A DNA stretch of 64,000 nt, taken from the NCBI GenBank assembly GCA_903821745.1, contig CAIJMI010000005.1, positions 263,802 through 327,801 on the forward strand. The letters are read 5' to 3'. The translations under genes and the position numbers were made by a program. This DNA is from Candidatus Gottesmanbacteria bacterium. Lineage in GTDB: Bacteria > Patescibacteriota > Microgenomatia > UBA10105 > UBA927. The notes beneath the pieces are model-generated. The model had not been told where the DNA came from. It ran no database searches and worked only from the letters and a program-made list of their open reading frames with translations. Numbering within the stretch: position 1 is the first letter of the stretch; every line of letters starts with the position of its first letter. Positions 20,584 to 61,500 of this stretch are shown in pieces.

Positions 20584-22887
20584 ATGGTAAATATATATCC
20601 TATGAAACAGCAATTGTTTCTCTCTTTTTCCCATGGTATTGTAAAACGCTCATTCAAAACCTGCTGTCGTGTTTTTTTTATCGCGGTAGTAATGATTGCA
20701 CTCTTTTGTTTTCGACCTGTTGCAACCAATGTTTGGGCATGCACATCATGTGGTGAGGTACCTTGTACTAGTAGTCAGAATAAATCTACGACTGGCTGCC
20801 CTTCTGGTACGTGGTGCTGTGTAGCAAAACCGGCAACGAGCACCCCAATACCGGCAACGAGCACCCCGAAACCAGCAACAAGCACCCCGAGGCCCCCATA
20901 TTGTTTATCGGAATACACCTGTGGTACAGCTTGTTGTCCTTGCGGATGTACCCCATCATCAACCGGTGGATCATGTACATCACCGTGCCCAACAAACACA
21001 AAAGCCCCAACCTCAACACCAACTCCAGTATGTGATGTTTGGCACCTCATTAATTGCCTTTGCGGATGTACTGCAAATACATGTAACACGTGCCCAACCG
21101 CTACCCCGATACCATGTTTAGCAACTGGTCAGGCGTGTTCAACGAACAGTCAATGCTGCAGTAATAAATGCAATAATTTAGGTGATGGTTCATATTGTGT
21201 TGTTAACACCTCAACCAATACCCCGACCCCGACAACATCTATTTCACAGTCTTGCTACCCCATTGGCAGTAGTAAATGCGTAGATAGCTTTAATTCCTCT
21301 GAATGCCTATCTAATTATACCTGGAGTGCACCAAATTCATGTCATTTCCCCTGTGTAGGAAGCCCTTCAGTTAACTGCCAAAACGATCAGTGCTGCCCTG
21401 ATCCTGCAGGTGATAACCCATACTGTGTTGGGTATTGTTCTCGATATTGCACTAGTCCACAAAAGCTATTGAATTGTTGGGCAAACTACCAAGCGTATTT
21501 AAACGATAAACTCAAAGACGACAATCTTGGTACGCTTTCTTCAGGGTGTGTAACGACAACAACCGCTTGCTTAGAATGTGTCGTCACCTGGGAGCGGTGC
21601 GGAGGAACCGCAACCTGTCCATCCGGACAGTACCCCTGGTGGAACAGCTGTTCTGATAATTTCTGCAGTACAGCCATGTGTGGAACCCCTGCACCCGGGT
21701 GCACCCCAAATTGCAGTTGCGCAACGGCGCTCTGTTCGACACAAACGTGTTCAGACGGATGCGGCGGTGTATGCCACGGAACCAATCCCTGTTATGGCAC
21801 GATTCAGGCAAAAGCCGTTATTACTGAAAGCTGCAGCACCATTGCCACGGCAGAACCACTCAATGATACGACCATAACCTTAAACAACGCTGACCCAAAA
21901 ACACAGACAAATGGCATCCCCGTCACCTGGACAAACGTACCCATTGGTACATATACGGTCTCTGCTACCAATGCCATTTCCACGCTTGTCCCGAAAATAT
22001 ACTGCATTCCAAATGGAAGCGGGTACGTTGAGGGAAGTTCACAAACGCTTGAAACAAACGGATCCATATCGTTTTTCATAGGATTTGCACCTCCGAACGG
22101 CTGGGTACAAGCAATCGGAGGCGATGTCTATGCAAAAGGCCAACTCACCTCCTCTGTTCCGGCAACTTATTATTTTTCACTGGCCGGAGCTATGGGCGAT
22201 GCGGGAATCGTATCGTATGGAACACTCAATGGCTATGACTTTTCCCTCTCAGATACAGACAAAGGCGAAACACAGGTGTCCCTCCCGCCAGCCTGGCTAG
22301 TCTACAATCCCAACAATCCATCACTTCATCTCTACGAACAGTTTGCAACACAGTTTGATATTCCTGGAAACACACCACTCCTGGCATCTTCACCGTTAAC
22401 CGTAACAAAACCTACGTGTGACACAACGCCATTACCCTGTGTCTTTTATGTAAGTGGCGATCTGGAGACAACTTCGGGAAATCCATGGACCATTGGATCA
22501 ACAGAACAGATGGTTATATTTGTTAGTGGAAGTGCACATATTAACAGCCCCATAACCATCACACCAGGCGGATTTTTTGCCCTTATCGTCAATGGCACTA
22601 TTACTGTCGACTCTACCGTTGGTGGACCAGCAGCAAATACTGTGCCAACGCTTGAGGGCATCTATATCACAAACCAATTTGAAACAGGAACAAGTGACAC
22701 CGTTGGGACAGAACGGCTGAACATCAAAGGGTCTGTCATCGCAGATATGTTTCTTCTAAATCGGTCTCTTGGCATATTCAACGCAACGCTTCCCGCAGAA
22801 CAGTTTACCTTCAACCCACAACTGCTCTTTACGATGCCAGACAAAATGAAAGAAATTCCCTATGTCTGGCAGGAAGTGGCACCCTGA
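20584..22887 (+). CDS. Large cysteine-rich secreted/surface protein with PATSTP tandem repeats
   Basis: Signal-anchor at the N-terminus, about 400 aa with very many Cys in C-x-C/CC patterns, then a roughly 350 aa Thr/Ser-rich beta-type domain. No catalytic motif recognised. Confidence 0.5.
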   Translation: MVNIYPMKQQLFLSFSHGIVKRSFKTCCRVFFIAVVMIALFCFRPVATNVWACTSCGEVPCTSSQNKSTTGCPSGTWCCVAKPATSTPIPATSTPKPATSTPRPPYCLSEYTCGTACCPCGCTPSSTGGSCTSPCPTNTKAPTSTPTPVCDVWHLINCLCGCTANTCNTCPTATPIPCLATGQACSTNSQCCSNKCNNLGDGSYCVVNTSTNTPTPTTSISQSCYPIGSSKCVDSFNSSECLSNYTWSAPNSCHFPCVGSPSVNCQNDQCCPDPAGDNPYCVGYCSRYCTSPQKLLNCWANYQAYLNDKLKDDNLGTLSSGCVTTTTACLECVVTWERCGGTATCPSGQYPWWNSCSDNFCSTAMCGTPAPGCTPNCSCATALCSTQTCSDGCGGVCHGTNPCYGTIQAKAVITESCSTIATAEPLNDTTITLNNADPKTQTNGIPVTWTNVPIGTYTVSATNAISTLVPKIYCIPNGSGYVEGSSQTLETNGSISFFIGFAPPNGWVQAIGGDVYAKGQLTSSVPATYYFSLAGAMGDAGIVSYGTLNGYDFSLSDTDKGETQVSLPPAWLVYNPNNPSLHLYEQFATQFDIPGNTPLLASSPLTVTKPTCDTTPLPCVFYVSGDLETTSGNPWTIGSTEQMVIFVSGSAHINSPITITPGGFFALIVNGTITVDSTVGGPAANTVPTLEGIYITNQFETGTSDTVGTERLNIKGSVIADMFLLNRSLGIFNATLPAEQFTFNPQLLFTMPDKMKEIPYVWQEVAP
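20829..20891 (+). repeat. 3 x 21-bp tandem repeat encoding (P)ATSTP(I/K)
   Basis: Direct tandem copies accggcaacgagcaccccaat / accggcaacgagcaccccgaa / accagcaacaagcaccccgag. Confidence 0.6.
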
Positions 22888-22906: not shown

Positions 22907-24382
22907 TTAAAAGTACACTACTCCTAAAGGATAGAGTGTGTGTTCAACTGTATATGACCAATCTGATTCCAAAGGTTTCGGATCAACGGGTATTTCAAAC
23001 CCCATATAATAAAACAATGGAGACCATGGATCGTTAGATGAAAACATTGGTTCATTTAAGTGATCATATGCAGGTAAAATCGCCAGTGTTAATGGCCAAA
23101 GATGAAACCACTCAGGGTGAACCGTACCTGTATACTTGCTTCCTACAAAAATATGATACGCTGAAGAATTCGATTCATGTATATGATCAAAAGCTTGTTC
23201 TTTTGTATAATTTTTTTCAAATATATCTAGTTGAGCGGCGTCAGCAACGGTGATATTCCGCATTCCCACATCATCATACACACCGTGTAGTATGGTAATA
23301 TTTTTATTCCCATCTCCGGCCTTGAATGCAAATCCCAGCAGCATATAGGGATGGTCCTGGAACATAAACTGGGAACAGGAAACGATATGCACAGGTTTAT
23401 TATAAACCCAAAGCTGGTTATAAGGTAAATACTGTTCAGCTTCAGTTCTTCCAGTAGCAGTAATCATGTCACCCATCATATCCGCTGTTATCCCCTGATC
23501 AGCCAACCATTGTTTTTCCACCTTGGTGAGTCTGTCCAGTATATTTGCCATCGCATCAGGATCAAATGTCCCGTCTTTTTTGGTCGGCATGTCTATCTTA
23601 TTACACTCTTCAAATGTCTCAGGGATTCCCGCTTTCAGCTCCACTGTTTTTGTAGGGGTAATGGTTGGTTCTTTGGTTTTTGTGGGGGTAATGGTTGGTT
23701 CTTTGGTTGGGGTACGAGCAACGGATGTGGGGAACGTTTCAACGGGAGCGCCTGGTGTTACCGCAGGATGAGATATATCCGATGCTTTGACTGGACCATT
23801 AGTACACGCGGCAAGGAGTGTTGTTGCCCCAATTAATGCGGTAATAACTTTTTTGCGCTTATCCGCCGGAATGAGTGAACGGACATCTTTTTTTTGCTTT
23901 TCTGTTGTAGGAAGCCATGATTCGGTGGTATCCAAAAGGGATAGCGCAGTGTCTCGTACTGTATTTGATACGTCTCGTATGGTTCCTTGTATCTTCCTAT
24001 CCTGTGGCGCATTGGCAAGTGACCAAATAGATAGTTCAGTAACCGCATGCAGGGTTTGTTGTTCCTCAGGAGAGAGTTTGCTGAAAGCGAAGTATCCATC
24101 ACCAATTTGATCCCATAACGAGGTTGCTTCAGGATGTGTGGGGTGTTCAATCATTGCTTCAGGAAGCGGTTCAAAACAGGAAAGTAATTGGGCAAATGCG
24201 TGTTGGTCTCTGGCGTCTTGATAATTGTGGTGTTCTTGAAGATCCGTTACTGCTTTCTGTATATGACTATTGCCAATGCCATCTTTGATGTGAATTGGAA
24301 ATCTCGATAAAGTCTCGAAAGACTTCGTCGTATCAAATATTCCTTCAACGTGTATGACTTGTTCGCGTTCAGTCATATGCAT
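22907..24382 (-). CDS. Hypothetical bitopic membrane protein with repeat-containing extracellular domain
   Basis: Cytoplasmic roughly 170 aa, then a TM (ITALIGATTLLAACTNG), a PTKEPTITPTK repeat linker and a roughly 270 aa extracellular domain. Confidence 0.5.
   Translation of the reverse strand: MHMTEREQVIHVEGIFDTTKSFETLSRFPIHIKDGIGNSHIQKAVTDLQEHHNYQDARDQHAFAQLLSCFEPLPEAMIEHPTHPEATSLWDQIGDGYFAFSKLSPEEQQTLHAVTELSIWSLANAPQDRKIQGTIRDVSNTVRDTALSLLDTTESWLPTTEKQKKDVRSLIPADKRKKVITALIGATTLLAACTNGPVKASDISHPAVTPGAPVETFPTSVARTPTKEPTITPTKTKEPTITPTKTVELKAGIPETFEECNKIDMPTKKDGTFDPDAMANILDRLTKVEKQWLADQGITADMMGDMITATGRTEAEQYLPYNQLWVYNKPVHIVSCSQFMFQDHPYMLLGFAFKAGDGNKNITILHGVYDDVGMRNITVADAAQLDIFEKNYTKEQAFDHIHESNSSAYHIFVGSKYTGTVHPEWFHLWPLTLAILPAYDHLNEPMFSSNDPWSPLFYYMGFEIPVDPKPLESDWSYTVEHTLYPLGVVYF
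23651..23710 (+). repeat. 2 x 30-bp tandem repeat inside CDS 22907-24382
   Basis: tgtaggggtaatggttggttctttggtttt / tgtgggggtaatggttggttctttggttgg. Confidence 0.6.
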
Positions 24383-28589: not shown

Positions 28590-30344
28590 ATGCATCGTAT
28601 GAAACGGTTTTTTGTTACCGCTGTTGTTTGTATTTCCCTGCTCATCATGTTCCCAACACGAAGCGTGGTTGCAGCATCCCCAACCCCGACACAACCACCT
28701 ATTCCCGAAGGTCGTGCCATTAATGCGGGTGTTCTCAATACACTGCTTGAAAAAGGCCAATCGATACAAGGCGGGACCGAACCGGTTTCCAGCATCAATT
28801 TTCCCAGTGTCAATCTTGAGGCAAACAATGATTTTGATGTGTCGAATTTACAACCAGTCAGTGATTTGTTTAAGGCAACAGTACCGTTTCTTGACCCGTA
28901 TCTTGCAAAGCAAATCACCAAGGACCAGGATGCAAATCTCTACATTTCCGGAAAAGCAACACATTGTGTCTACGGTTCAGACGGATCATTCCGTCAAGAA
29001 TCAAGTGAGAAACCATACATAACCGAAATCATCCCGGAGCTGTCAGACCTCGACCAATCTTCCAGACAAATTGCATCCCATCTCACCCAATATTCATTTT
29101 CAAAAACCGACGGATCATATAATTTCAAACGATCTCCCCTCGTGCTTGCTGATCCACCAGGATGCGACGAAACAGATATAGGAACCGTACAACAACCAAA
29201 AACAGTCCAGTTGGCCCAGGGAATGAATATCATCCAACTGGTATTAAATTTTCTGAGGACGCTTTTTTCCGGAGACAGCCTCAATATACGGGAAACCTTT
29301 GCATCCAAACAACTGACTCCCTATGCAGAAAGCATGGGGTGTCTGATAAGCGGTTGCCAAGGAGGAACGCTCTCCTATCTTGAGAAGAAAGAACAGGAGC
29401 GCGTCCAAAAAAGCGGAGGCGTTGCAAAAACCTATGCACCAATGATTCATGACGTCACCAAAGGGGAAGTACATGGAGAACAGGAAAATACCTTTGGTGG
29501 AACAGGAGCCATTCAGACACATGTCACGGAATCAAAAGCAATTGAAAACGCAAAAGATTATATCCTCTGTTCCATCCTGCCAAAATCCGAACGCGACAAA
29601 TACGGACTCGCTGGAAAATGCGAACAAGAAACCACATCCTGCGATGTAACATTACCCAAACTTCCTGCGAATCAATCCTGCAAACTCAAAAACAATACAC
29701 TGAAGCTTCCCAAAAATCTGGTTACCGCCATTGAGGCTGCGGCAAGCGCATATAAAGTCCCCGCTTCACTGATCGTTGGTGTCATCTATGGTGAGGGAGG
29801 CTTTAATCCCGGCTCTATCTACCTCAACGAAGCACAGGTTGAAAAATATCTCAAAGGATGCGCTACCCTACCAAACTGTAGCCCAAAAGCGACGATCATC
29901 AAAAACATCGTCGAATTTTATCAGGTAAACTGGAACGATTTATCGAATGCCGTCAACATCATTGATCCCAAAAGAAAACCAAACGCATGCAATTTGTTAG
30001 ACGGGATCTTTGCGCTTGCCAAAGACTTGTCTCAAAATCAATACGGTTCAGCAGCCTTTGCTGGAAAAACCTGTTTTGGCATAAAGCTCAATGCCGGGAG
30101 CGGCGGATCAGCATCATGCAATTGGAGTGATACATCTGCAGAAACGGCAATCCGGGTCTGGGAATTCGGCGTCGAGTGGAACAACGCCACTTTAAGCTGT
30201 GCAACCAAACTCAATAGCTGTCTGATGGGTGGTGGTCTTGACGCGCAATGTCCAACGGGTGGAGATACCTGTGAAACAGGAAGCAATCGCTATACCCAAC
30301 CAAGCCACAACGCATGTATCTGGAACGTATATAAAAGCAACTGA
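28590..30344 (+). CDS. Secreted Cys-containing hypothetical protein, possible glycoside-hydrolase/transglycosylase-like C-terminal region
   Basis: Signal peptide (MKRFFVTAVVCISLLIMFPTRSVVAA). The C-terminal EGGFNPGSIY segment weakly recalls the lytic transglycosylase ES-GFNP motif. A GACCCCGGGAGGGGTC hairpin plus TTTGATT follows the stop. Confidence 0.45.
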   Translation: MHRMKRFFVTAVVCISLLIMFPTRSVVAASPTPTQPPIPEGRAINAGVLNTLLEKGQSIQGGTEPVSSINFPSVNLEANNDFDVSNLQPVSDLFKATVPFLDPYLAKQITKDQDANLYISGKATHCVYGSDGSFRQESSEKPYITEIIPELSDLDQSSRQIASHLTQYSFSKTDGSYNFKRSPLVLADPPGCDETDIGTVQQPKTVQLAQGMNIIQLVLNFLRTLFSGDSLNIRETFASKQLTPYAESMGCLISGCQGGTLSYLEKKEQERVQKSGGVAKTYAPMIHDVTKGEVHGEQENTFGGTGAIQTHVTESKAIENAKDYILCSILPKSERDKYGLAGKCEQETTSCDVTLPKLPANQSCKLKNNTLKLPKNLVTAIEAAASAYKVPASLIVGVIYGEGGFNPGSIYLNEAQVEKYLKGCATLPNCSPKATIIKNIVEFYQVNWNDLSNAVNIIDPKRKPNACNLLDGIFALAKDLSQNQYGSAAFAGKTCFGIKLNAGSGGSASCNWSDTSAETAIRVWEFGVEWNNATLSCATKLNSCLMGGGLDAQCPTGGDTCETGSNRYTQPSHNACIWNVYKSN

Positions 30345-35372: not shown

Positions 35373-37661
35373 TTATTGTCTCTTTCGCTGATGGGGTTTA
35401 ATCCGGTCCCGATGCCCTTCGTACATCTCCGGTGGATACAACTGCTCATACAGGGATGGGATGCACGGTTTTTTGGGATCCCGGACAAACCATCGTTCCG
35501 CAGTATATCGCCCAGTTGCATCGTCAATAATCTTATCCTCAAATCCCATAAATCCACTGCCAACAAGGTTCTTTATACGAGCTACTTGTGCAACGGGATA
35601 CAGATTGACTTCGATGATTTGTTCCGGTTCCCCTGCTTTTTGTATAGAAATGACACATTTTTCTCGAATGATACGATCCCCTTCTGACCCTGGCCGTTTC
35701 CCTTTCCGAATCGATTCACCATATGCTTCACGATCAGGAAAAGATAAGAAAAGATACGACTGCACCCGTTCATAAGAACGAGACGTATGGGTTTCCGGAA
35801 GAATCCGTGCAGTCCAACCAGATCCTGACAGCTCCTGTTCAAGATGCGCAAGCAGTGCAGTGCGGACCTTACCAGTCAGCGCAACACGGTCAGCGAATGA
35901 GGCATCGGGTGCAAAATTTTGATCCGACAAGGCAATATTGATGGTATGCGCATCAAATAAATCAGATGATTGATACATTTTCCGCATAATAGATTCGGTT
36001 GACTTTGCTGGACGCTCATCGATCATTAAATGCACACGCGCACCATCAATACGTTGGTTCATCGTACGCAGCATCACATCATGACGTACCCCATTGCCAA
36101 TATTAATACATTGAATTTTTGGAGGAAACTCCACAAACGTATTCATGGCAGACCGAAATAAGGTATTCTTTACCGAATCTTTTTTGCTCCGCGCATCGAT
36201 GGCGGTAAGCGTTAATACCAATGTTCTAAATGATTCAAATCGTAACATCTCCATACTTGATGATGTCATATCGTTTGGTGAAATCGAAACGTCTGGATGG
36301 AAGCCAAAACCAATAAAAAGCAAATGAATCATCGGCGTATTCGTCACTTCGTTCATTGGACGATACTCCTGAAATTGCGGTCCTAACGCATGCATGTTCT
36401 CTGCAATATAATCCGGATATTTCTGTGCAATACGATATGCCTGTTGCAAAAATACTTTTGGTTTCCCGAGATAAGCAGACAACGCATCCATAAACTGATC
36501 GTCCATCGTCGTTAAAAATTCCACCCGATCAGACAATGGCATCGCCAGTATGCGTGGCCATATGGTCTGTAACGCGGTAAACGTGTCCATGTTGGATGAA
36601 ATGGGTGTTTGCATTACTTTTGCATACATATGTTCCACAACTGGTCGGATGGATTTTCGAAACGCCCGAACACTAGAAAATGCAGGGGCTGTTGGCACGT
36701 TGATGAGCACATCTAACAAATATTGAGGTGGCGTAACGCTCAATATACGTGGAAGTTTCAATAAGTCAGCAGGCTTCGGTGGTATGGAGGCACCATTTCT
36801 ATCACGAAGATGTTCATCATATAACAGGGCGCGCATTTGTGCTGAGATAAACCCTACGATCAATTCCTTTTTTGTACAGTCACCAGGAAGCTCAGCATAC
36901 GGACGCGACTCACCACCAAACACATTATAAAATTTTCGTATACTATTCACTTCACGGAGAATGGCCACTTTCCAGAGCTCATCAATCCGTTCCACCTCAT
37001 GCATAACATCTCGAATCGCAAGATACCGTTTTTCCCGATGAATCGGATCCGAAACAAACGTATGGTCACCCACCGTAAGATGTTCAAGAAGCGGAACAAC
37101 ATCGCCATTCTCCAGTTGTACCATCCCGTTCAAAAATGCATTCCGTAATGCCTGTGGCGGCACACCATAAATATCCTGTTTTCGGTCAGGTCGCTTCGTA
37201 TCTTTTCGAAGCACGTGAGCAGAAAACGATGACGATCGTATTGGAATAACCACGCAGTGCGCTAATCTTTGTTCTTCATCTTCAGGAACACGATGAACAA
37301 ATGGGGCAAGGGGCGGTGCATGAAAAAGAAAATCCCTGGTCAATTCATTTGCATGATGGACCATCGTCGTATCAAACTCCAAACAGTTCAGTGCTTCCTC
37401 ATAAATCGATCTTCCATCAGTAATTTTTCCTCCAAATGGGGTCATCCGATCGGCTGTTATGTCGATAGTATCTGATTGTCGTGCCAAATATGTTCGTACC
37501 AGTGAGGTATCAGATAATGATGGATCAACGTCCAGTGCCAAGGAAAATTCTTCAAGTGATATCGGCGCGACAGGAAAAATACGCACGACAGGAAGAACGT
37601 CACCAAAACGTTCCTGAATTTCAGATGCACGAAAATATGAATGTTCAGGCGTCATATGCAA
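35373..37661 (-). CDS. Large hypothetical protein (762 aa)
   Basis: Intact ORF with no Walker, nuclease or other motif recognised by eye. Sits where rpoB would be expected after rplL, but on the opposite strand. Confidence 0.5.
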   Translation of the reverse strand: MHMTPEHSYFRASEIQERFGDVLPVVRIFPVAPISLEEFSLALDVDPSLSDTSLVRTYLARQSDTIDITADRMTPFGGKITDGRSIYEEALNCLEFDTTMVHHANELTRDFLFHAPPLAPFVHRVPEDEEQRLAHCVVIPIRSSSFSAHVLRKDTKRPDRKQDIYGVPPQALRNAFLNGMVQLENGDVVPLLEHLTVGDHTFVSDPIHREKRYLAIRDVMHEVERIDELWKVAILREVNSIRKFYNVFGGESRPYAELPGDCTKKELIVGFISAQMRALLYDEHLRDRNGASIPPKPADLLKLPRILSVTPPQYLLDVLINVPTAPAFSSVRAFRKSIRPVVEHMYAKVMQTPISSNMDTFTALQTIWPRILAMPLSDRVEFLTTMDDQFMDALSAYLGKPKVFLQQAYRIAQKYPDYIAENMHALGPQFQEYRPMNEVTNTPMIHLLFIGFGFHPDVSISPNDMTSSSMEMLRFESFRTLVLTLTAIDARSKKDSVKNTLFRSAMNTFVEFPPKIQCINIGNGVRHDVMLRTMNQRIDGARVHLMIDERPAKSTESIMRKMYQSSDLFDAHTINIALSDQNFAPDASFADRVALTGKVRTALLAHLEQELSGSGWTARILPETHTSRSYERVQSYLFLSFPDREAYGESIRKGKRPGSEGDRIIREKCVISIQKAGEPEQIIEVNLYPVAQVARIKNLVGSGFMGFEDKIIDDATGRYTAERWFVRDPKKPCIPSLYEQLYPPEMYEGHRDRIKPHQRKRQ

Positions 37662-37877: not shown

Positions 37878-38078
37878 ATGGCAATGGGCGATGACTGGCC
37901 AGATCTATTAACCGTAAAGGAAGTTGCAAAAATTTTGCGTGTTTCCCCTCTTACGATTAAACGCTGGGGTAAACGAGGGAAACTTCCAGCTATTCGGATT
38001 AACTCACGAGGAGACAGACGCTACAAAAAAGAAGCGGTCATGTGGCTTTTGGGACTCCAACAAAAAGGACAAATCTAA
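37878..38078 (+). CDS. Excisionase/MerR-like HTH DNA-binding protein (HTH_17 type)
   Basis: LLTVKEVAKILRVSPLTIKRWGKRGKLPAIRI...RRYKKEAV. AAAGGAG RBS before the ATG. Confidence 0.6.
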   Translation: MAMGDDWPDLLTVKEVAKILRVSPLTIKRWGKRGKLPAIRINSRGDRRYKKEAVMWLLGLQQKGQI

Positions 38079-38083
38079 ACGCA

Positions 38084-38977
38084 TTACACAGCAACTTTTT
38101 GGAGCTGTTTTGCAGCTTCTGTGGGATCAATAACATTAACGTTCAAACCGGTTCCCAGTTCAAATCCAGCACGGTGAATAGAACGTGGAATAATACGGAT
38201 AAACCAATTTTTCCCGTGATAGATATAGTAATTAAACACAAACGGCTCATTTACCTGTTTAAACAGAAGTTCCGGACTTTTGAGAACAACACTCAACTTC
38301 CGTAAAGTCCGACTGACCACATTTGCAAGCTCCGGTAGTTCCGTGTCCGTCACATCACTGAACTTTTTTCCGTCTGTTTTTGGAGCAATCCACGTTTCAA
38401 ACGGCCATTGGGAAAACTCAGGACAATAGGTCGTAAATAACGGATATTCTTCGACAATATTTTTAAATGGTTCGAGCGTTAACGCATCAAGATTGATTTG
38501 ATTGGGAACCACAACGAGTTGACTATGCGGATGTTTCAAACTAGCCCCAGCTGACAATCCATGATTGCAAAAAATGAGAACTTGCCCATCCATTTCATGT
38601 GCTCGGTACCGGTCGCGGTATACAGAAAAAATCTTTTGTACCTGAAACACTGGCAGCGTGTCCACGTCAGCTGTATCACTCGGAGAATGAATGACCACTT
38701 CATGAATATCGGTAATTGGGTATTTATTGGGTACCACCCGAACGTCCCATCCTGGGGTATTCGGTTCCCCCGCTCCCACTCGATATAGTTCTGGTGGTGT
38801 TTCTTTTTCGTTACCTGCACAAAATGGACAGACATGATATGCCGTTGGTTTTTGTGCAACAGTTGGACGGTCATTACGAACCGGAGATATAATTATCCAC
38901 CGTTGCGTTTTACTATCGGGAACATAACGTGCCATAACGTTAGTATCGAGCATCCAACAGGAAGTATCAAGTCTCAC
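38084..38977 (-). CDS. galT: Galactose-1-phosphate uridylyltransferase (HIT superfamily)
   Basis: Zinc-site CPFCAGNE and the HPHSQ (HxHxQ) catalytic motif. Alternative ATG at 38935. Confidence 0.75.
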   Translation of the reverse strand: MRLDTSCWMLDTNVMARYVPDSKTQRWIIISPVRNDRPTVAQKPTAYHVCPFCAGNEKETPPELYRVGAGEPNTPGWDVRVVPNKYPITDIHEVVIHSPSDTADVDTLPVFQVQKIFSVYRDRYRAHEMDGQVLIFCNHGLSAGASLKHPHSQLVVVPNQINLDALTLEPFKNIVEEYPLFTTYCPEFSQWPFETWIAPKTDGKKFSDVTDTELPELANVVSRTLRKLSVVLKSPELLFKQVNEPFVFNYYIYHGKNWFIRIIPRSIHRAGFELGTGLNVNVIDPTEAAKQLQKVAV

Positions 38978-39034
38978 TTACTTCTATTGACAAGGGACAC
39001 ATTACGATACGGTACATGTATCGAGGTAGTATGT

Positions 39035-39334
39035 ATGAAACAATTTTTATCGGTATTCCTAGATGTTTCTCTTGCTCTTGTTCTCTGTATCGCTGCGTCT
39101 TTTTTCATTCCTTAGGGACAAATATCCTGGGGTACACTCTCCTGGCAACCAGCACGAACAATTACCGTTTCAGGGCAAGCAGTAAGTAAAGAAAAGAATC
39201 AGATAGCAACATTTAATGCAGGTGCAAATTCCGTCAAAGACAGCAAACAGGATGCGATCAACGAGGTAAACAGCAAAATACAATCAGTTATTGAAGCTGC
39301 GAAATCAGTCACCGTCATGTTTGAATTACACTAA
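39035..39334 (+). pseudogene. SIMPL/DUF541-like periplasmic protein remnant with in-frame TAG and 3' truncation
   Basis: ATG at 39035 with a GAGGT RBS and TTGACA at 38987. Signal peptide MKQFLSVFLDVSLALVLCIAASFFIP, then TAG at 39113-39115. The same frame continues for 72 codons (TITVSGQAVSKEKNQIATFNAGANSVKDSKQDAINEVNSKIQSVIEAAK), matching a DUF541 N-terminus, then stops at the 3' end of the convergent gene. Confidence 0.4.
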
Positions 39335-39343
39335 GACGATTAT

Positions 39344-40357
39344 TCAATAAAATCGTTTCAATAATATTGCCGCTTTTTCCTTTATCTTATCGGTTACGGC
39401 AACCCGCACCATACCAACGTTTGGTTGTCCGTAATACACAATCGATTTTATAGGTGCGTAAAGAATCACCGGCAACACTAATAAATCCTCTTCTCCATCA
39501 ATAACAAAAACAGATGGAGATTTCTTTTTTGACCATGAAATAATTGCATTTGTTGCATCGCGACTGATATATCCAGGACCGCTTTTGAATTCTTGTTTTG
39601 TCTTCGGCAGCTTGTTCCAATACTCTTTCTCCCACATATACGGAAGCCGTTCCACTTGCATATCGACAATTGCCAACGTGGGAACAAGTCCATTATCCAA
39701 AAGTCGCTTTGTTGTTTTGTCTCCAACGGCAATAACAATTGCATCATGATCACCTCGAATAATGGATTCTGTGTTGCCGTCTTTTAAGACAATTCCAAAC
39801 GGTTCTGCAAGTTCACTCCGCATGCTGTCCGGCATGATGAGTTTTCCTTCCGTATCAATTTCCTGTTTTCGGATGCGTGTTGATGAAATAGGCTGTGTGT
39901 TTTCAGCTTTCACCATCCAAACGGTATGGACCGCCAAAACAGGCAATCTCACTGCTTTTCGTTTTTTGTTAATCATCACCGCTCCCTCTTTTGTATCTGT
40001 TGAAACGACAATGACATCCATGGTATTTTTCCCAACGGTTGGCCCATACATGTCATCAATGGGAACAATATCGGCACGATTTAAAAAATGATGTTCCCGG
40101 AGCCATGTTTCTACTTGTTGTTTTCGAGTGGCAAATGATTGAATCCGAGAGGAAGAAACACAGGGGCATGCAACACCCGAAATGTTCTCATCACACTTGT
40201 ATTGCCGCACATACGCGTCCGTCGTCAATCCGATAGTTACGCGGGATGCAATTGCGAACGCCTCAGTAAGAAGGGCACCGTGTCCGCTATGGAGATGGTC
40301 GAAGGTCCCGCCAAGTACTGCGTGTTTGAACATACGGAGCATTATATACCTTTCCAT
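39344..40357 (-). CDS. Putative bifunctional CoA-biosynthesis protein: archaeal-type HxGH nucleotidyltransferase (phosphopantetheine adenylyltransferase-like) fused to a DUF359-like (archaeal GTP:dephospho-CoA kinase-like) domain
   Basis: N-terminal LGGTFDHLHSGH (the (H/T)xGH cytidylyltransferase-superfamily motif). C-terminal half has AIVIAVGDKTTKRL...LAIVDMQVERLP...VIDGEEDLLVLPVILYAPIKSIVYYGQPNVG, which resembles DUF359. Confidence 0.5.
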   Translation of the reverse strand: MERYIMLRMFKHAVLGGTFDHLHSGHGALLTEAFAIASRVTIGLTTDAYVRQYKCDENISGVACPCVSSSRIQSFATRKQQVETWLREHHFLNRADIVPIDDMYGPTVGKNTMDVIVVSTDTKEGAVMINKKRKAVRLPVLAVHTVWMVKAENTQPISSTRIRKQEIDTEGKLIMPDSMRSELAEPFGIVLKDGNTESIIRGDHDAIVIAVGDKTTKRLLDNGLVPTLAIVDMQVERLPYMWEKEYWNKLPKTKQEFKSGPGYISRDATNAIISWSKKKSPSVFVIDGEEDLLVLPVILYAPIKSIVYYGQPNVGMVRVAVTDKIKEKAAILLKRFY

Positions 40358-40413: not shown

Positions 40414-40803
40414 TTAGATTTTCCCAGCGTGATGCAGACCCCAATACAGTTTCTGTGCTTTCTCAGACAGATCAGTGAATTTTTTCCTGGAAACAGGCGC
40501 GTATTCCACTTTCACTGGACGCCCATCATACTCAGCTTCCCCAACGAGACTCACCATACCGTCCTGAACGATCCGAAGTCCACCGTCAAGCGTCTCTTCC
40601 GTCCTTGTTTGTGCATCTTCTAGCCTAAGCCGTTGTTCTTTGACGTATTCCATGACTTCGTCAAATGGTTTTGGGCCTCTTGATTTAGGTTCTTTTTTCT
40701 TTTTGGGACGGATTTCGTGATCTCCAGCATGCGGGTGCGTATGGAACTCCCCTTCTTTGGAGATAAATACTCCGCGTTGTCGTGCAAATTCAGGATTGTT
40801 CAT
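40414..40803 (-). CDS. Hypothetical protein
   Basis: 129 aa, basic and acidic, no motif recognised. Confidence 0.4.
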   Translation of the reverse strand: MNNPEFARQRGVFISKEGEFHTHPHAGDHEIRPKKKKEPKSRGPKPFDEVMEYVKEQRLRLEDAQTRTEETLDGGLRIVQDGMVSLVGEAEYDGRPVKVEYAPVSRKKFTDLSEKAQKLYWGLHHAGKI

Positions 40804-53984: not shown

Positions 53985-56900
53985 ATGGCAGAACTACCCA
54001 TCGTACCAAAAGAAATTCCGAATCTTGGACCTGTTCTCGCATTTGGAAACCCTGATCGCGGTATTCAAGGTACTCATTTGTACATCAAACCAGAAGCCAT
54101 AAAGAAATACAAAGAACATGTCTTTGATGGAAAAAAATTGAAAGAATTTTCCCTGTTTGACGCACAAGCTGCAGCAGATACCGGTCTTGATAGTGCACGG
54201 ATCAAAATGCGCGTTTATCCAAACAATAAAGCAGATGGACAAACGGAACTTCGTGCAAACCCAGCAACAGGAGAAACGATCCCCCTCACAAATACATGGG
54301 GTGTTCGCATGATGGATGATCATGCAGAATTTGTTGACATTCCGATTGAAGATCTCACAACGGAAAAACCGCAACCAAAACCACGAAAACCAAAAGAAGG
54401 AGTGATTACCGTAACAACGAAGGCACGGGAAGAATTGGAAAAAATCCGGGTTGGATCAGCAGATGCAACACCGCAGGATAATATCTCTGAATCAGACGAT
54501 GGCGCTACTCCGGGACTTTTACATCTGAATGAGAAAACCACACAAAAAACTACTACTCCAATTGATAGACCGCAGGATAATATCTCTGAATCAGATGATG
54601 GTGTTACACCTGGAATATTCCACGCAGAACCCCCTACGTCTACTTCAACAATAACACCAGAGCCCGAAAAAACTATTCCCTCGGCTCCCTCAGAAGTTAT
54701 ACCAACACCAGGAACAGAACCAACAACGTCAACATCAGAAACAACAACTCCTCCATCCCCACCAGAAGCTACACCAACAGCCACGCCAACACCTGAAGCA
54801 CCGCGGGAGAATGTCGTAACCATCGTTGGTATCCAGGAAGCATTTAAACGGAGGGCAACAGATTTTGCCAAAGAAGCACTGGAAAAAAGCAGGAATATTG
54901 TTAAAAAATTCTTTGGAGAACGGTTTGAAGAACGCTATTATCAACACTTCCGTAAGATGCTCGAGGCGGCACAAAATCCATTTGCCAGAGAAAGTATCGC
55001 AATTGCACAACAACGAGCAAAAACACGATATGACGCTGAAATGAACGGACGAAATGGTCTGTCACGGGCAGCGCGAAAAACCTGGGATCGTATCAAAGAA
55101 TACACGTTTGGCACCACAACACTTGAACGGTATGCGGTCGAAGAAATCAGTGCCATGCAGCAAGCAGGACAAATTAGAGAACAAGCATCCTTTGACCAGG
55201 AAATGCAAGCTTTTGTAGAGCGCTTTGAAAAACCATTTGAAGAATCAGACACCGCAATTCGCCAGCAACTTGGAGAACGGTTGGAAATTCTTAATCCGGA
55301 TAACACAGAGCACAAACCCCTCATTGATGGCATCAAAGGACTCATCAAAGAATACCGTGATGGAACAATTCCTGATGCAAAAGTGTTAAACGAACGGTTA
55401 CATGTACTGTACGAAACAACCATTTCTCCAGGACGACAGGATTTACTCGGTGAAGCTGAAACCTATGCCTCCAGTCTTGCGGTTGTTGCAAAAGACATGA
55501 AGGACAGACTGAATCATGGAGTATCACTGGCAACGCTTGACGGAGAACTGGAAGCGATGCAAGTGCGACTGGGTATCGGACAAATGGGAGAAGCAACGGA
55601 AATAAACGCAACATCCACTCATAAAACGGTTGAATGGATGAAAAAAACCGCTCGTAACCTTGAAAAACGGGGCATCATTCATAATGTAGTGCTCAACGAA
55701 TTTACCGTTGGTTCTGCAGTTTCTGCCGTTCTTGCACTCAAAATGATTCCACAAATGGCGGCATCAGCGAGTGCTCGTATGTGGATTGGTGGAGGTGCAG
55801 GAGCGGTGGTCACCGGGGCAATTTCTACAGGCCGGGAGTTTGGCAAGAGGCAAGGAGAACTTCGTCGCATTGTCGCACAAAAAGAAGCGGGAATCCAAAC
55901 ACCAGATACAGCAAAACAACGCCAGTGGTATGAAACCTTTAATTTTCAACTTAGAACAACCAAGGATCTCATTGATTGCATGCAGTCCCCGATTCTTGAC
56001 GCAGATGGACAAATGAAATCCACAGTGACCATTGATGACCTACGAAAAAGCGCTGCCAACTTAGCGGATGCAAAAGCGCGAAGTGCCATCAGCCAACGGG
56101 AACATAACCGATTTGGTCTTATCAACATTGGAGCTGTTGGCGAACAAGAAAAGAACAGAACCGCCCTTGTCCAGTCCATGATTAAAACAGAAACAAATCT
56201 CAAAACGTATTTAACCGAACATCGTCTCGATCAGGATGTTATTAATTTAATCGGTCCAACACGCACGGTTGAACAATATCTTGATAGCTTAACAACAGCA
56301 CAAACGCAAATTCTTAACGAGGGCAATCAGGTGCTGACCAATTTAAATGACACATATATTCGTACAGCACTGGATCCGCTCAAAGCATACACGCCGGAAG
56401 TTGACGTCATGCGTCGCACGCTTGGTCTGGCCGGAAAAGCAGAGTCCAAAGGCAAAGAAAGCGGTCTGGATGCACTGCTCAAAGAATTTAAAAAACAAGC
56501 AATGGTCGAAAGTGTACGCACCGGAGTGAAAACTGCCAGCATTGGTTTTGCCATAGGAACCATTGGCAACGAAGTGGTAATGGATGTAAAACACGGCTTT
56601 GGAAGCGGTGCCGTCTCCAGTCTCTTTATGCACGGACCAGAAGCAACAGGCGCTACCCCGATTCTTCCAACAACCCATATTGAAACCATCGGATCACAAC
56701 ATATTGTACTAGGTGATAATATGCATATTGATGCAGCAGGAAACTTAGATATCACGGACGGACAAGGGCATATTATTCATGATGCAATCCCGGATTTTCA
56801 ACACCATTATGTCAATGGTGTCCTTGATGATTTTGCACGAAATAAATTACATGATTTAGGGTTAAATCCTTCCATTACGACGCAGGACGTACAACAGATC

Positions 56901-58496
56901 ATTCCTGGCACACCAACAGAAGTACCCGGAGTAACCCAGCACTTCCAAGGTGGAGAAAGTGTTGTTGATGCACAGGGTGTCACCCATACCCCAGATTGGA
57001 CACTTCCACAAGGATCGCACTTAACAGCAGTTGCTGGAGATGCACACACATTCAATCTTGTGGACAGCAATAACGAGATTATTACATCAGGAATTCATAC
57101 CGATGCAACCGGACACATCACCAATCTTTCAGAAGTCCAACAACATCTTCCAAGCAACTGGCACCTGACAGAAACCGCTAGCTCCATTCAAGGAGCACCA
57201 GAAACCGTCATTGATTCAACGACACGAACGGTCCATGTCTACACTGATTGGGATGACCGTGGCGACTGGGGATGGACAGAAAGACAATTGAGCGGACAGG
57301 ACATCACCCACCTCAATCCAGCAGTCAATGCCATTACCACCGTCTGGAGAAGTTATGAAAATCAAATTCAGGGAAGCAATATAACGTTTGATCACACGAT
57401 ACCGGGACTGGAAAATGTGCACCGTGCCATTCCGCTTGTGAACGGAGAGATTTCAGCAAATATCATGCCAAACAATAGTATTCTTGAACTTCCCAATTCC
57501 CTATTCTCTAACGAGAACATGGCACAAATGGCCCATTGGAGTGATGAAGCAATTAAAATGTTTGACGCGGAACAACTCGCACACCCTGACATGAAACCAC
57601 TGCAAATTCTTGCAGATATTCAAAAAACAGATGAGCTCCACGGACTTATACTTCGCATCGGACGATTTTCAATCCATGAACTCGGTCAGGACAAGCTCTC
57701 AGCAGATGAACTACAATTTTTGATGCGAGAACTTGCGGGCAGTCATACAGAAACAGCAACAACATTGCTGCATAACGTCACCTTCACAGAAACCTTTGCA
57801 CAACCAATCACCCAAACAGTCCAAGAACACGTTTTTACAGTAGTAGAACAACTTGCCAATCAACCAGAGGGATTTATTCCCATCCTTCCTTTTGAAGTAC
57901 GAAAAGGATTGGAACCCATTGATATGCCAACAGTCACCCCGCCAATACCACCGACCATAACCCCACCGGTAACGCCTCCAATAACACCCATACCTGAAAA
58001 AGGAGATAATGATGCGGAAAAAGGCGGAACATTTCAAAGTACTGCAAGAGTAGGATCCCCACCGATCAACATGTCGCCTCCTCCACCTCCCAAAATTTCT
58101 GAAGAAGAAGAACGGAACCGAAAGAAAAAGAAAGTTTCTGTTCCAACGTCTGCCGAAGTTGAGGAAGAAACTTCCATACCACCAATCGGTATTGAACCGG
58201 TAATTTCCAAGCCAACACCATCAGAAACCACGGAAAAGACACAAGAAACGCCCGAAACAGAAGAACAACCAATAGAAACCACCATACCGGTGGTAAATCA
58301 AACAACACCTTCAGAAACACCAACAGAAACACCGTCAGAGGAATCTCTTACAGAAACAGTTAGTATCCCAACCGAGAAAGCACCAACAGCGGCACCAGAA
58401 AACCAAGTGGACAAACCACCAGCAGGACATGATGTTGATATTCCCATTGATCAAGATCTTCAACAGCTTATTAATGAATTGAACGGTCAAATCTAA
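53985..58496 (+). CDS. Giant hypothetical protein (1503 aa) with internal TM segment(s), 33-aa tandem repeat and Pro/Thr/Glu-rich tail
   Basis: Uninterrupted 4.5 kb ORF. Repeat PQDNISESDDG(A/V)TPG. Hydrophobic stretches around AVSAVLALKMIP...GGGAGAVVTGAIST. C-terminal TPPIPPTITPPVTPPITP and SETTEKTQETPETEE low-complexity regions. Confidence 0.6.
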   Translation: MAELPIVPKEIPNLGPVLAFGNPDRGIQGTHLYIKPEAIKKYKEHVFDGKKLKEFSLFDAQAAADTGLDSARIKMRVYPNNKADGQTELRANPATGETIPLTNTWGVRMMDDHAEFVDIPIEDLTTEKPQPKPRKPKEGVITVTTKAREELEKIRVGSADATPQDNISESDDGATPGLLHLNEKTTQKTTTPIDRPQDNISESDDGVTPGIFHAEPPTSTSTITPEPEKTIPSAPSEVIPTPGTEPTTSTSETTTPPSPPEATPTATPTPEAPRENVVTIVGIQEAFKRRATDFAKEALEKSRNIVKKFFGERFEERYYQHFRKMLEAAQNPFARESIAIAQQRAKTRYDAEMNGRNGLSRAARKTWDRIKEYTFGTTTLERYAVEEISAMQQAGQIREQASFDQEMQAFVERFEKPFEESDTAIRQQLGERLEILNPDNTEHKPLIDGIKGLIKEYRDGTIPDAKVLNERLHVLYETTISPGRQDLLGEAETYASSLAVVAKDMKDRLNHGVSLATLDGELEAMQVRLGIGQMGEATEINATSTHKTVEWMKKTARNLEKRGIIHNVVLNEFTVGSAVSAVLALKMIPQMAASASARMWIGGGAGAVVTGAISTGREFGKRQGELRRIVAQKEAGIQTPDTAKQRQWYETFNFQLRTTKDLIDCMQSPILDADGQMKSTVTIDDLRKSAANLADAKARSAISQREHNRFGLINIGAVGEQEKNRTALVQSMIKTETNLKTYLTEHRLDQDVINLIGPTRTVEQYLDSLTTAQTQILNEGNQVLTNLNDTYIRTALDPLKAYTPEVDVMRRTLGLAGKAESKGKESGLDALLKEFKKQAMVESVRTGVKTASIGFAIGTIGNEVVMDVKHGFGSGAVSSLFMHGPEATGATPILPTTHIETIGSQHIVLGDNMHIDAAGNLDITDGQGHIIHDAIPDFQHHYVNGVLDDFARNKLHDLGLNPSITTQDVQQIIPGTPTEVPGVTQHFQGGESVVDAQGVTHTPDWTLPQGSHLTAVAGDAHTFNLVDSNNEIITSGIHTDATGHITNLSEVQQHLPSNWHLTETASSIQGAPETVIDSTTRTVHVYTDWDDRGDWGWTERQLSGQDITHLNPAVNAITTVWRSYENQIQGSNITFDHTIPGLENVHRAIPLVNGEISANIMPNNSILELPNSLFSNENMAQMAHWSDEAIKMFDAEQLAHPDMKPLQILADIQKTDELHGLILRIGRFSIHELGQDKLSADELQFLMRELAGSHTETATTLLHNVTFTETFAQPITQTVQEHVFTVVEQLANQPEGFIPILPFEVRKGLEPIDMPTVTPPIPPTITPPVTPPITPIPEKGDNDAEKGGTFQSTARVGSPPINMSPPPPPKISEEEERNRKKKKVSVPTSAEVEEETSIPPIGIEPVISKPTPSETTEKTQETPETEEQPIETTIPVVNQTTPSETPTETPSEESLTETVSIPTEKAPTAAPENQVDKPPAGHDVDIPIDQDLQQLINELNGQI
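54471..54615 (+). repeat. 2 copies of a roughly 45-bp unit at 99-bp (33-aa) period inside the giant ORF
   Basis: ccgcaggataatatctctgaatcagacgatggcgctactccggga versus ccgcaggataatatctctgaatcagatgatggtgttacacctgga. Confidence 0.55.
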
Positions 58497-58510: not shown

Positions 58511-61500
58511 ATGGAACAGCAAGTCACGACACCTTCATTTTTAAAACCCATTGCTCCAGAGTTCCAATTGCCAAACAATACTACACTAGATAAACCGACA
58601 CAAACTGCGTTACTCATTCTCACCGCGCGAAATCGAAAATTGAACGCAGTTAAACCAGATTTTCATCTTGCTGAGCAGCCCACCCCAGCAATGATTGACA
58701 CAGCAAAACGGTTAGTAGAATTTCAAAAAACATTAAAACAACAAGCAGGGCCGCAAATTGCAACAGAATTTCTGACTACGCCATACAATATAACCTGGAT
58801 GGAACAAATTCTAGATATTGATCCAAATAAAGTTGCCCTGGTTATGCAAACCAGAGATCGTGTGCATGCCGTCATAACACAAGAACACATTGATCCCCAA
58901 TTTGAACCGGCACTTGCTCTTGGTGCATACACAGGAATCGAACGGTTACACGAACTGAAGATGGATCATGAAACCACCACAACAGCTATAGCAAAAATTC
59001 GATCGCGCAGTAAGGAGATGGGAAGTAAAGACACTATCGATCGCCATTTGATTCACTATCTGGAAGCACTTCCTCAAGACGAACGGCTCCTTATAGGCAG
59101 TAAACGGGATGAACTGCTCACAACGATGATAACCAAAGATATTGCAAACCGACTAGAAATACATTCACGACACGCTGCTATTCTCCAGCAAAGCCAAGGA
59201 GTTGAGGTGGAAGTATTACAACATCTCGAATGGGTACCGACCGAACAGCGAGACACCGCACGAAAACAAGCCCAAATGAGTCGTATAGAACGGTATGGTA
59301 TTCGAGACTGGCTTCCTCGAGGAATTCGACAAGAAGATCATGAGCGCATGGATTGGCATTTAACGCACATGCTTGGCATACCAGAAGACGTCGGGGAGAA
59401 AAAATTTGAGTGGTTTGAGATGTCGACCGCACCAACAGATGGCGGTCCTGCGCAATCAACAATCCTCCATGAATTAACTCTAGCCGGTTTTATTTCACCG
59501 GAACTTCTTTCCAATACCTGGGAAAAATACAGTATGCATGCGTCAACCGTATTTCCGGAACGTATTTGGAACCAAAACGCGCAAGATCAATACGTCCTTC
59601 ATGCACGCGCACTTGCCGGAGCGTTTGCATCTACACAACGCGGCGTCTATGGAGGCTACGTATTTGATGATACCAGAGGCAGAGAAATAGCGGATAAAAC
59701 ATTAGAAGGCCAAAAGAAGTTTGCGGCGGTTGCCGGAAAAGGGAGCGAATCAAAATCAGGAAAAAAATTGGTAGAGATGCGTGTGTTTGATCTCACAGAA
59801 CGAGGGCAGTATGCAATTGAACTTCATAAACCATATCTGGATTTTGCATTCAAATGTTATTGGGAACATGAAAACGGTCAACCGCTCCAAAATATTGCCG
59901 AATACCGTGCGGTGAATGCATGGAACACATACTTTCAAGAGCTTTCCGCACTCTACAAAAGATATGATATTCCAATTAATGCAGACGTGTATCAATGGAG
60001 ATCTGTCGGATGGAAAAAGGCAGAACAACCACAACTGCAGACAGATCTTGCAAAACTCATCCGAAAAACAGCAGGCGAATTACGACATATCGTCAATGAA
60101 GAAATCGCACACCCGGAGTCTTTACCCCCCCAATCAGAAACACCAATTTCACTCCTTGGCAAACGAACCATTACCAGCATTGAAACGCCAGAAACAGCGC
60201 TTCATGATCCACGTATTATCCTTTCTCAACAAGAAGCAAATATACTCCATCTTCAAGATAACCAATTATTCTTTATGCGATTTGGAGAAACAAAAATTCC
60301 TGCGTTCATCCATATTGATACAGCAAGGAATCAAGATACGTCATTCACGATAAATAAACGACTGCAAAAATTGCTGCATATGCCAGAACATGTCGATCTG
60401 TCGCTCCGATTTAACCCAATAGAACAAGAAATCGATTGCGGTCCATTATTAGGAATCCCAGTCCGTGTCGAAGATCCAACACTTCAGGAGCCATTTGGAG
60501 AACAAACGGCGTATCACAAAAATTTAATTCTCACCGCACGAAAACAAGGTGTTGTTGCGTATTCATTTGATGTCTCAAGCAATACCGATAATTTCAATGT
60601 GAACGAGAAAACCATCACGGGTATTACACTCAGTGAAGATGGAACAAAATGGATTGAAACCACGCTTCCCTATCCAGACGTTATATTATCCAGAAATTTT
60701 GGAGAACGCAGCAGAGATAAAATGGGTGCAATTGCCCATATTCCATTTGTAAATCATCCAGATTTTGTCGACTTGATCGCTGATAAAGTCGAACTGCCAA
60801 GAGCCATCTGTGAAAATCCAAGACTGAGACCCTATGTTCCAGAAACAATGGAATTTACCGGACTTTCTGCGCTTGAAGACATGATGAAAAAACATGAAAC
60901 CGTCTATCTGAAACCAACTTGGGGCATGCGATCAGAAGGCGTTGTACGATTTGATAGGCTTCCTGATGGAACTATCCGATATACGCATACTATCCAAGGA
61001 ACAGATCCGTTAGATACATCATATGGTTGGCCAGAACCTGGACAGGATGGGTATGGTGGTAAAATTGTGCCGACGGTTCAAGAGGCGCTTCATGCAACGG
61101 ATGTGTTCCGAAAACAGTTCATATATGACAAATATATTATGCAACAAGGCATTGAAGGTATTCCTGGAAATGAAGGGCGCCCCTTAGAACTTCGATTTCT
61201 TTTCCAACGGGATGAAACAGGCAAACCTGCCATTATTGGATGGGATCAAGGACAAAAAGATTTTTGGATGCCAACGATCAATAAATTATTTGGTGAACAC
61301 AACGCGGAAACGGTAACCACGAATGCAACAACGCTTGCCAAAGCGCTCTCACTACAAATCCAACGACATTTCGGTCCACAATTTGGACAATATTCCATAC
61401 AGATAGCAGTCGATAAAGTCGGAAAAACATGGCTTCTGGAAGCAAATCCCAAACCTGGAGTAACGAACCAGTTCCATGCAATTCAACTAGATAATGTGGT

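Follow-up and report, generated by a model that had tools for sequence, protein, structure and literature searches.

In a 64,000-nucleotide stretch of a Candidatus Gottesmanbacteria bacterium genome (assembly GCA_903821745.1, contig CAIJMI010000005.1, positions 263,802 to 327,801; hereafter the window), we characterized a gene whose product joins two archaeal-type enzyme families in one polypeptide, a phosphopantetheine adenylyltransferase (PPAT) and a DUF359 domain of the GTP-dependent dephospho-coenzyme A kinase (DPCK) family. We consider it very likely that this protein is a bifunctional "CoA synthase". A model-generated first-pass annotation of the same DNA had proposed that one polypeptide performs the last two steps of coenzyme A (CoA) synthesis with archaeal-type enzymes, and the domain scores, the catalytic residues and the folds all argue for such a role. 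The fusion is real and probably active. The protein is a bacterial member of a kind of fusion already described in archaea, and such fusions are common across the candidate phyla radiation (CPR, Patescibacteria).

The gene lies exactly where the first-pass annotation had placed it (39344-40357, minus strand, 337 amino acids), and every motif quoted there is found in the translation, namely GGTFDHLHSGH (aa 16-26), VGDKTT (aa 211-216), IVDMQVER (aa 230-237), DGEEDL (aa 287-292) and YGQP (aa 309-312). Its division of the protein into an N-terminal third and C-terminal two-thirds does not hold, as the two domains each take up about half (aa ~10-174 and ~175-336). They abut without a linker, with G171, L173 and P176 conserved at the junction. 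The first 5-8 residues of the maximal open reading frame (ORF) are probably not translated, because public gene calls for the 100% identical protein start at M6 (P0121, 332 aa) or M9 (P0001, 329 aa) and a Shine-Dalgarno-like GGAAAGG element stands 5′ of the M6 ATG. Translation likely begins at the ATG at 40342 (M6) or at the one at 40333 (M9). A promoter and terminator scan around the gene gave results no better than those from shuffled sequence.

Profile models place the N-terminal half, described earlier as a cytidylyltransferase-like domain of archaeal PPAT type, in precisely that family. The NCBIfam model for archaeal-type PPAT (NF001985; PRK00777, COG1019 type) scores 145.1 bits against a cutoff of 104, with aa 10-174 aligned to model positions 4-153 of 157, and Pfam CTP_transf_like (PF01467) scores 40.8 bits against a cutoff of 21 (E=3.1e-10, aa 14-164). 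In the Protein Data Bank (PDB), this half matches 3do8_A of Archaeoglobus fulgidus, annotated as PPAT, over aa 14-173 (E=1.2e-15). Among 266 full-length fused homologues H23 is found in all and H26 in 265, and in the second nucleotidyltransferase motif R161 is kept in 253 and S158 in 224. An insert of ~20 residues (aa ~54-75) is without counterpart in 3do8 and is partly disordered in the predicted structure.

The C-terminal half belongs to DUF359, as had also been suggested. Pfam PF04019 scores 102.8 bits against a cutoff of 25 (E=1.3e-29), with aa 215-336 covering model positions 1-125 of 126, and NF041125 together with four related PRK01160 models aligns to aa ~175-335 at 54-74 bits, under lineage-specific equivalog cutoffs. 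Alignment with the GTP-dependent DPCK of Thermococcus kodakarensis, TK1697 (8jvc_A), extends over aa 178-333 (E=2.8e-15), and the 3do8 and 8jvc matches tile the fusion protein without overlap. Three conserved aspartates of TK1697 are kept (Table 1), their equivalents having been located by counting residues in the 8jvc alignment, starting at chain residue 10. In T. kodakarensis, the D48A and D67A mutants of TK1697 cripple growth of the complemented knockout, while the effect of D125A is milder (PMC6650551). R237, five residues past D232, is invariant in the fused homologues (266/266).

An AlphaFold2 model of the fusion protein, built on an 82-sequence alignment, reached a mean predicted local distance difference test score (pLDDT) of 91.4 and a predicted template modelling score (pTM) of 0.75, with aa 58-69 as the sole low-confidence segment. 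When the model was compared with the PDB by Foldseek, the top ranks went to T. kodakarensis DPCK (8jvc, 8jvg and 8jvf; E from 1e-13 to 8e-11, target-normalised TM 0.77-0.86), 8jvc alone giving E=1.1e-13 and TM 0.80 and 8jvf TM 0.86. Next came 3do8_A/B (E=6e-9/2e-8, target-normalised TM 0.80/0.86), followed by bacterial CoaD structures (E~1e-5, TM~0.62-0.66). Since bacterial CoaD is a weaker but still significant fold match, the PPAT half is a distinct family within the HxGH nucleotidyltransferase superfamily. The earlier contrast between archaeal-type PPAT and bacterial CoaD is thus right in that the two are different families, but to call them unrelated was too strong.

On this basis, the N-terminal domain would transfer AMP from ATP onto 4′-phosphopantetheine, yielding dephospho-CoA and pyrophosphate, with the nucleotide held by the HxGH and ISSTRIR motifs. 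The DUF359 domain would then phosphorylate the 3′-OH of dephospho-CoA to give CoA. D213, D232 and D291 presumably coordinate the metal-nucleotide, as proposed for the distantly related thiamine pyrophosphokinases, and we infer from the abutting domains that dephospho-CoA could be handed over from one active site to the other. A protein acting in this way would stand in for CoaD and CoaE together in these bacteria.

Several points weigh against this assignment. The activity of the bacterial members would follow from homology, and 3do8, which comes from structural genomics and bears the title "protein with unknown function", cannot itself anchor a PPAT activity experimentally. By analogy with T. 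kodakarensis, GTP is probably the phosphate donor, but this is the least secure step of the scheme. Both Thermococcales equivalog models fall far below their cutoffs, with 74.4 bits against 290 for NF041124 (CoaD) and 74.1 bits against 300 for NF041125 (GTP-dependent DPCK, aa 175-335). NF041124 is a lineage-specific model, and its failure means that the protein is not a Thermococcales orthologue rather than that it is not a PPAT. Missed Thermococcales cutoffs are expected at 26-29% identity, yet by that standard orthology is uncertified. At position 153, four residues before ISSTRIR, this genome encodes Asn in place of the family Asp, which is present in 98% of the 120 closest homologues and in 184 of 198 sequences of the wider family (Asn in 4). 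We do not regard N153 as disabling, because Asn or other residues stand there in a few otherwise intact members. Gene context adds no independent support, as CoA-pathway genes linked to the fusion were found in none of the 11 loci examined, and five Pfam scans over ~50 ORFs detected no other CoA-pathway gene in the 64-kb window.

The first-pass annotation suggested that such a protein, if confirmed, would be a notable horizontal-transfer or fusion event. The fusion is not singular to this genome, and belongs to a large family across Patescibacteria/CPR. A word-indexed search returned 439 clusters at 90% identity; of the 120 that were listed, nearly all have both Pfam domains. When 1.84 billion representatives at 50% identity were searched exhaustively, 4070 matches were obtained at E<=1e-3 and 558 clusters at E<=1e-30; nearly all of the best 150 listed cover most of the query in one matched stretch. 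The same two-domain protein is encoded, at ~30% identity and in unrelated gene contexts, in a Cerribacteria (L003) and a Patescibacteria (L004) locus. Some variants (P0320, 523 aa; P0330, 530 aa) carry an extra cytidylyltransferase-like domain N-terminal to PPAT-DUF359 and are possible trifunctional cofactor enzymes; PanK or CoaBC domains were present in no variant of the fusion family seen. Over the 266 full-length fused homologues, the mean pairwise identities of the two halves are nearly equal (41.7% and 39.3%), and their pairwise distances correlate at r=0.67, whereas none of 300 Mantel permutations exceeded 0.08. The near-equal conservation and the correlated distances indicate that both halves are under selection and are inherited as a unit. 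We read this as pointing to one old fusion, passed on as a unit with both activities apparently kept, and not to a recent event in this genome.

Archaeal members of the family were sought with a chimeric query assembled from 3do8 and TK1697 fragments. It returned Thermococcales standalone proteins and then fused proteins, whose named members were CPR; no archaeal fused homologue was recovered among the named fused matches. Two contigs were looked up from this search. The larger (L010) is clearly bacterial and the other (L011, 7 kb) is without domain-diagnostic genes.

Among the alternatives, the one that holds up best, though we think it improbable, is that the protein acts outside CoA synthesis, in some other pathway. 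The HxGH domain would then be some other nucleotidyltransferase, acting for instance on flavin mononucleotide, nicotinamide mononucleotide (NMN) or a sugar or glycerol phosphate, and DUF359 would (pyro)phosphorylate another substrate. Models of such enzymes do match over the HxGH region, but weakly and far below threshold, and each was rejected: FAD synthetase (PF06574) scores 12.4 bits against 27, glycerol-3-phosphate cytidylyltransferase (TIGR01518) 17.8 against 165.4, the NMN adenylyltransferase models at most 17 against cutoffs of 112-397, and RfaE is likewise sub-threshold. Bacterial CoaD (TIGR01510) was also rejected, at 17.9 bits against 103.3 and over aa 13-47 only. Rival models reach 12-31 bits on a segment of ~40 residues, whereas NF001985 spans the whole domain. 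The possibility raised in the first-pass annotation that FAD synthase or glycerol-3-phosphate cytidylyltransferase would be the better assignment is therefore not borne out. A non-CoA role would also fit the second cytidylyltransferase-like domain of some family members, and it would fit the contig of a distant relative (L010, 7765-13504), where the fusion gene lies inside an NAD-biosynthesis cluster (nadD-like, NAD synthase, NadA, NadB-like), an arrangement that suggests a cofactor-synthesis island in place of the sugar-metabolism context seen in Microgenomates. DUF359 is, in addition, distantly related to thiamine pyrophosphokinases (PMC6650551), but no thiamine pyrophosphokinase family in Pfam or NCBIfam matches the protein at E<=1. 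In both sequence and fold the N-terminal half best matches the archaeal PPAT-type 3do8, and the next folds are bacterial PPATs. The sole characterised member of DUF359 is a DPCK, and a DUF359 domain joined to the enzyme that acts one step earlier is a classical Rosetta-stone signal, which again argues for CoA synthesis.

Somewhat less probable still is that only one half is catalytically active here, for example with the PPAT weakened by the Asp to Asn change at position 153, while the other half is structural or regulatory and a separate enzyme supplies the missing step. In favor of this, N153 stands in place of an Asp shared by 3do8 and ~93% of the family. On the other side, H23, H26, S158, T160, R161, D213, D232, R237 and D291 are all intact, the replacement is isosteric, residues other than Asp are tolerated at this position in otherwise intact relatives, and both halves are modelled with high confidence. 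An enzyme active in both halves is hence the reading we prefer.

The bacterial host assumed for these archaeal-type enzymes is confirmed by the surrounding genes and by the relatives of the protein. Genes of the window on both sides of the fusion are bacterial, including an L10 leader (RF00557), bacterial ribosomal proteins, NusG, two MreB, a penicillin-binding protein transpeptidase and a sortase, as well as a peptide deformylase with a methionyl-tRNA formyltransferase, and GC content and composition are uniform across the window. The closest named relatives of the protein come from Candidatus Gottesmanbacteria (70% identity) and from "Microgenomates group" metagenome-assembled genomes (67%), and more distant ones from Parcubacteria, Curtissbacteria, Cerribacteria and unclassified Patescibacteria. 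One might suspect archaeal DNA, either mis-binned or joined to a bacterial contig by chimeric assembly, since CheckM treats PF04019 as a single-copy marker universal to archaea (PMC8421398, PMC10134863) and the family was described as archaeal in 2019 (PMC6650551). Such an artefact is for all practical purposes ruled out, because the gene order rpiB-rpe-tkt-(tal)-fusion-GalT/HIT-like-66-aa helix-turn-helix (HTH)-...-rplL-rplJ is repeated on independent bacterial contigs of 0.47-1.07 Mb from different studies.

Fusions of PPAT with DUF359 (arCOG04076) have been reported in uncultured archaea, e.g. AIF21550.1 of a marine group II/III euryarchaeote. They were given as the grounds for examining TK1697, and this turned out to be the DPCK still missing for archaea (Shimosaka, Makarova, Koonin, Atomi 2019, PMC6650551). 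The same study, which includes experimental work on TK2128 (PPAT) and TK1697 (DPCK) of T. kodakarensis, treats the family as archaeal with no mention of bacteria or CPR, and its supplement holds archaeal RefSeq ids only (PMC6650551). The archaeal fusions likewise join these two families in a single polypeptide, and the function inferred for them, the last two CoA steps, is the same; they are archaeal, whereas the protein described here and several hundred relatives are bacterial. Compared with the separate archaeal enzymes, both halves share their folds with TK1697 (8jvc/8jvf/8jvg) and A. fulgidus 3do8 at TM ~0.8 and keep the equivalents of Asp48/67/125 and of the HxGH/ISSTRIK motifs, but the archaeal enzymes are encoded by separate genes and are only 25-29% identical to the fusion halves. 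The typical bacterial enzymes CoaD and CoaE catalyze the same reactions and are also encoded separately; CoaD shares the HxGH superfamily fold with the PPAT half, whereas CoaE is a P-loop kinase without similarity to the DUF359 half. The PPAT domain of eukaryotic COASY is of the same archaeal/eukaryotic type. COASY, too, fuses the two consecutive activities (mentioned in PMC6650551), but its kinase is a P-loop, CoaE-type DPCK that uses ATP and is not homologous to DUF359, so that the kinase halves of COASY and of PPAT-DUF359 are analogous and not homologous. Thiamine pyrophosphokinases are reported to be distant homologues of DUF359 that share two of the catalytic acidic residues (PMC6650551).

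Table 1. Coordinates, in the window, of the fused gene, its domains and key residues, and the adjacent GalT/HIT-family gene.
Feature	Position	Strand	Basis
Maximal ORF, fused PPAT-DPCK gene	39344..40357	-	337 aa + stop; no interruption
N-terminal domain, archaeal/eukaryotic-type phosphopantetheine adenylyltransferase, HxGH nucleotidyltransferase fold, aa 10-174	39836..40330	-	NF001985, PF01467, 3do8_A
H23-S-G-H26, (T/H)xGH nucleotide-binding signature inside GGTFDHLHSGH	40280..40291	-	Invariant columns, two homologue alignments
aa 58-69 (NISGVACPCVSS), within a lineage-variable insert that 3do8 lacks	40151..40186	-	pLDDT <50; gap in 3do8
N153 (AAC), position mostly Asp in homologues and 3do8; peculiar to this genome	39899..39901	-	Homologue counts
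I157-S-S-T-R-I-R163, second nucleotidyltransferase motif (ISxTxxR)	39869..39889	-	Aligns with PISSTRIK of 3do8
C-terminal domain, DUF359/arCOG04076 (GTP-dependent dephospho-CoA kinase family), aa 175-336	39350..39835	-	PF04019, NF041125, 8jvc_A
D213 in VGD, equivalent to TK1697 Asp48	39719..39721	-	Alignment and residue count; 266/266 fused homologues
D232 in IVD, equivalent to TK1697 Asp67	39662..39664	-	Alignment and residue count; 266/266 fused homologues
D291 in GEEDL, equivalent to TK1697 Asp125	39485..39487	-	Alignment and residue count; 265/266 fused homologues
GalT/HIT-family gene, HPHSQ motif; weak matches to DUF4921, GalP_UDP_transf and Ap4A phosphorylase N	38084-38977	-	

The neighbors conserved in Microgenomates are the pentose-phosphate genes and the GalT/HIT-like gene, nothing of which is shared in L003 or L004. 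In every Microgenomates locus examined, the GalT-like gene is found downstream of the fusion, adjoining it or with one gene between (L008), and stays beside it even in L009, where the upstream pentose-phosphate cluster is replaced. In these loci the GalT-like protein is better conserved (61-85%) than the fusion protein (38-70%). A functional link between the two was considered and set aside, the synteny being lineage-restricted and giving no sign of a CoA link. Between the two genes lies a gap of ~366 bp (38978-39343), compared with 18-25 bp in L001 and L002. On its plus strand this gap contains a signal-peptide-like start (MKQFLSVFLDVSLALVLCIAASFFIP), an in-frame TAG (39113-39115) and then ~72 codons whose match to Pfam SIMPL/DUF541 is confined to the first 49 model positions and, at 22.4 bits, falls just short of the cutoff, and it is probably the decayed remnant of an inserted gene. 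The GalT-like gene is in every case closely followed, on the other strand, by the gene for a 66-aa HTH_17/MerR-type protein (37878-38078, plus strand; BldC/excisionase-like, NF033787 47 bits). This protein is 91-98% identical across the Microgenomates loci, compared with 40-85% for its neighbors, which is unusually strong for a small DNA-binding protein. A gene for a "23S rRNA intervening sequence protein" (PF05635; 43893-44237, minus strand) recurs in or beside the pentose-phosphate cluster in L005, L007 and L009.

Elsewhere in the window, two adjacent, very large ORFs lie on the plus strand at 53985-58496 (1503 aa) and 58511-62200 (1229 aa). Their size and position hinted at rpoB and rpoC, an identity rejected on domain content, as the first has no match in Pfam or NCBIfam and the second combines a YheC/D-type ATP-grasp domain (104 bits) with a following GNAT acetyltransferase domain. 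GNAT-family enzymes typically use acetyl-CoA. The GNAT-domain protein is likely a consumer of CoA, and because the window encodes it, the organism probably has a use for the cofactor. Long ORFs at 20584-22887, 22907-24382, 28590-30344, 35373-37661 and 40414-40803 (767, 491, 584, 762 and 129 aa) belong to no Pfam family; L001 conserves the 762-aa ORF (72%) and L002, weakly, the 129-aa ORF (37%), and long ORFs of this kind are typical of CPR "dark matter". A 210-aa ORF (11909-12541, plus strand) scores 38.6 bits (cutoff 29.2) with the cadmium carbonic anhydrase repeat PF18484, whose family is known chiefly from diatoms. The ribosomal protein L1 ORF (33143-34063, plus strand, 306 aa) has the best-scoring of its two Pfam L1 stretches at aa 184-300, and may have a long N-terminal extension or be an over-extended ORF call.

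In NCBI and JGI records, the CPR fusion proteins are named only "pantetheine-phosphate adenylyltransferase" or "cytidyltransferase-like". A search of an incomplete literature collection found no paper that links CPR/Patescibacteria to DUF359 or to archaeal-type DPCK, which is a weak negative. Because several hundred CPR proteins are named as PPAT or cytidyltransferase-like only, metabolic reconstructions based on CoaE would mistakenly report that CPR bacteria lack the final step of CoA synthesis, when the DPCK step is probably silently present in their genomes. The value of the finding is in closing this annotation gap. Current understanding is not overturned, as both enzyme families and what they catalyze were established before, and so was the design of the fusion. 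The finding does show a pan-archaeal family and archaeal marker to be widespread in a major bacterial radiation, and adds a clean case of archaeal-type enzymes in CPR. The idea put forward in the first-pass annotation, that such a reduced genome finishes CoA from salvaged 4′-phosphopantetheine, is plausible. A wider view, which we offer tentatively and with more doubt than conviction, is that across much of CPR the archaeal-type fused PPAT-DUF359 alone replaces CoaD and CoaE, uses GTP and is often the sole gene of the CoA pathway. These episymbionts would then depend on 4′-phosphopantetheine or pantetheine from their neighbors, PF04019 would be a core CPR gene as well as an archaeal one, and the family would record an ancient exchange between CPR and archaea (or a shared heritage) that is undescribed in the CoA literature. 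Should the fused enzyme be the only route, it would define the step at which a CoA precursor has to enter these reduced, host-dependent bacteria.

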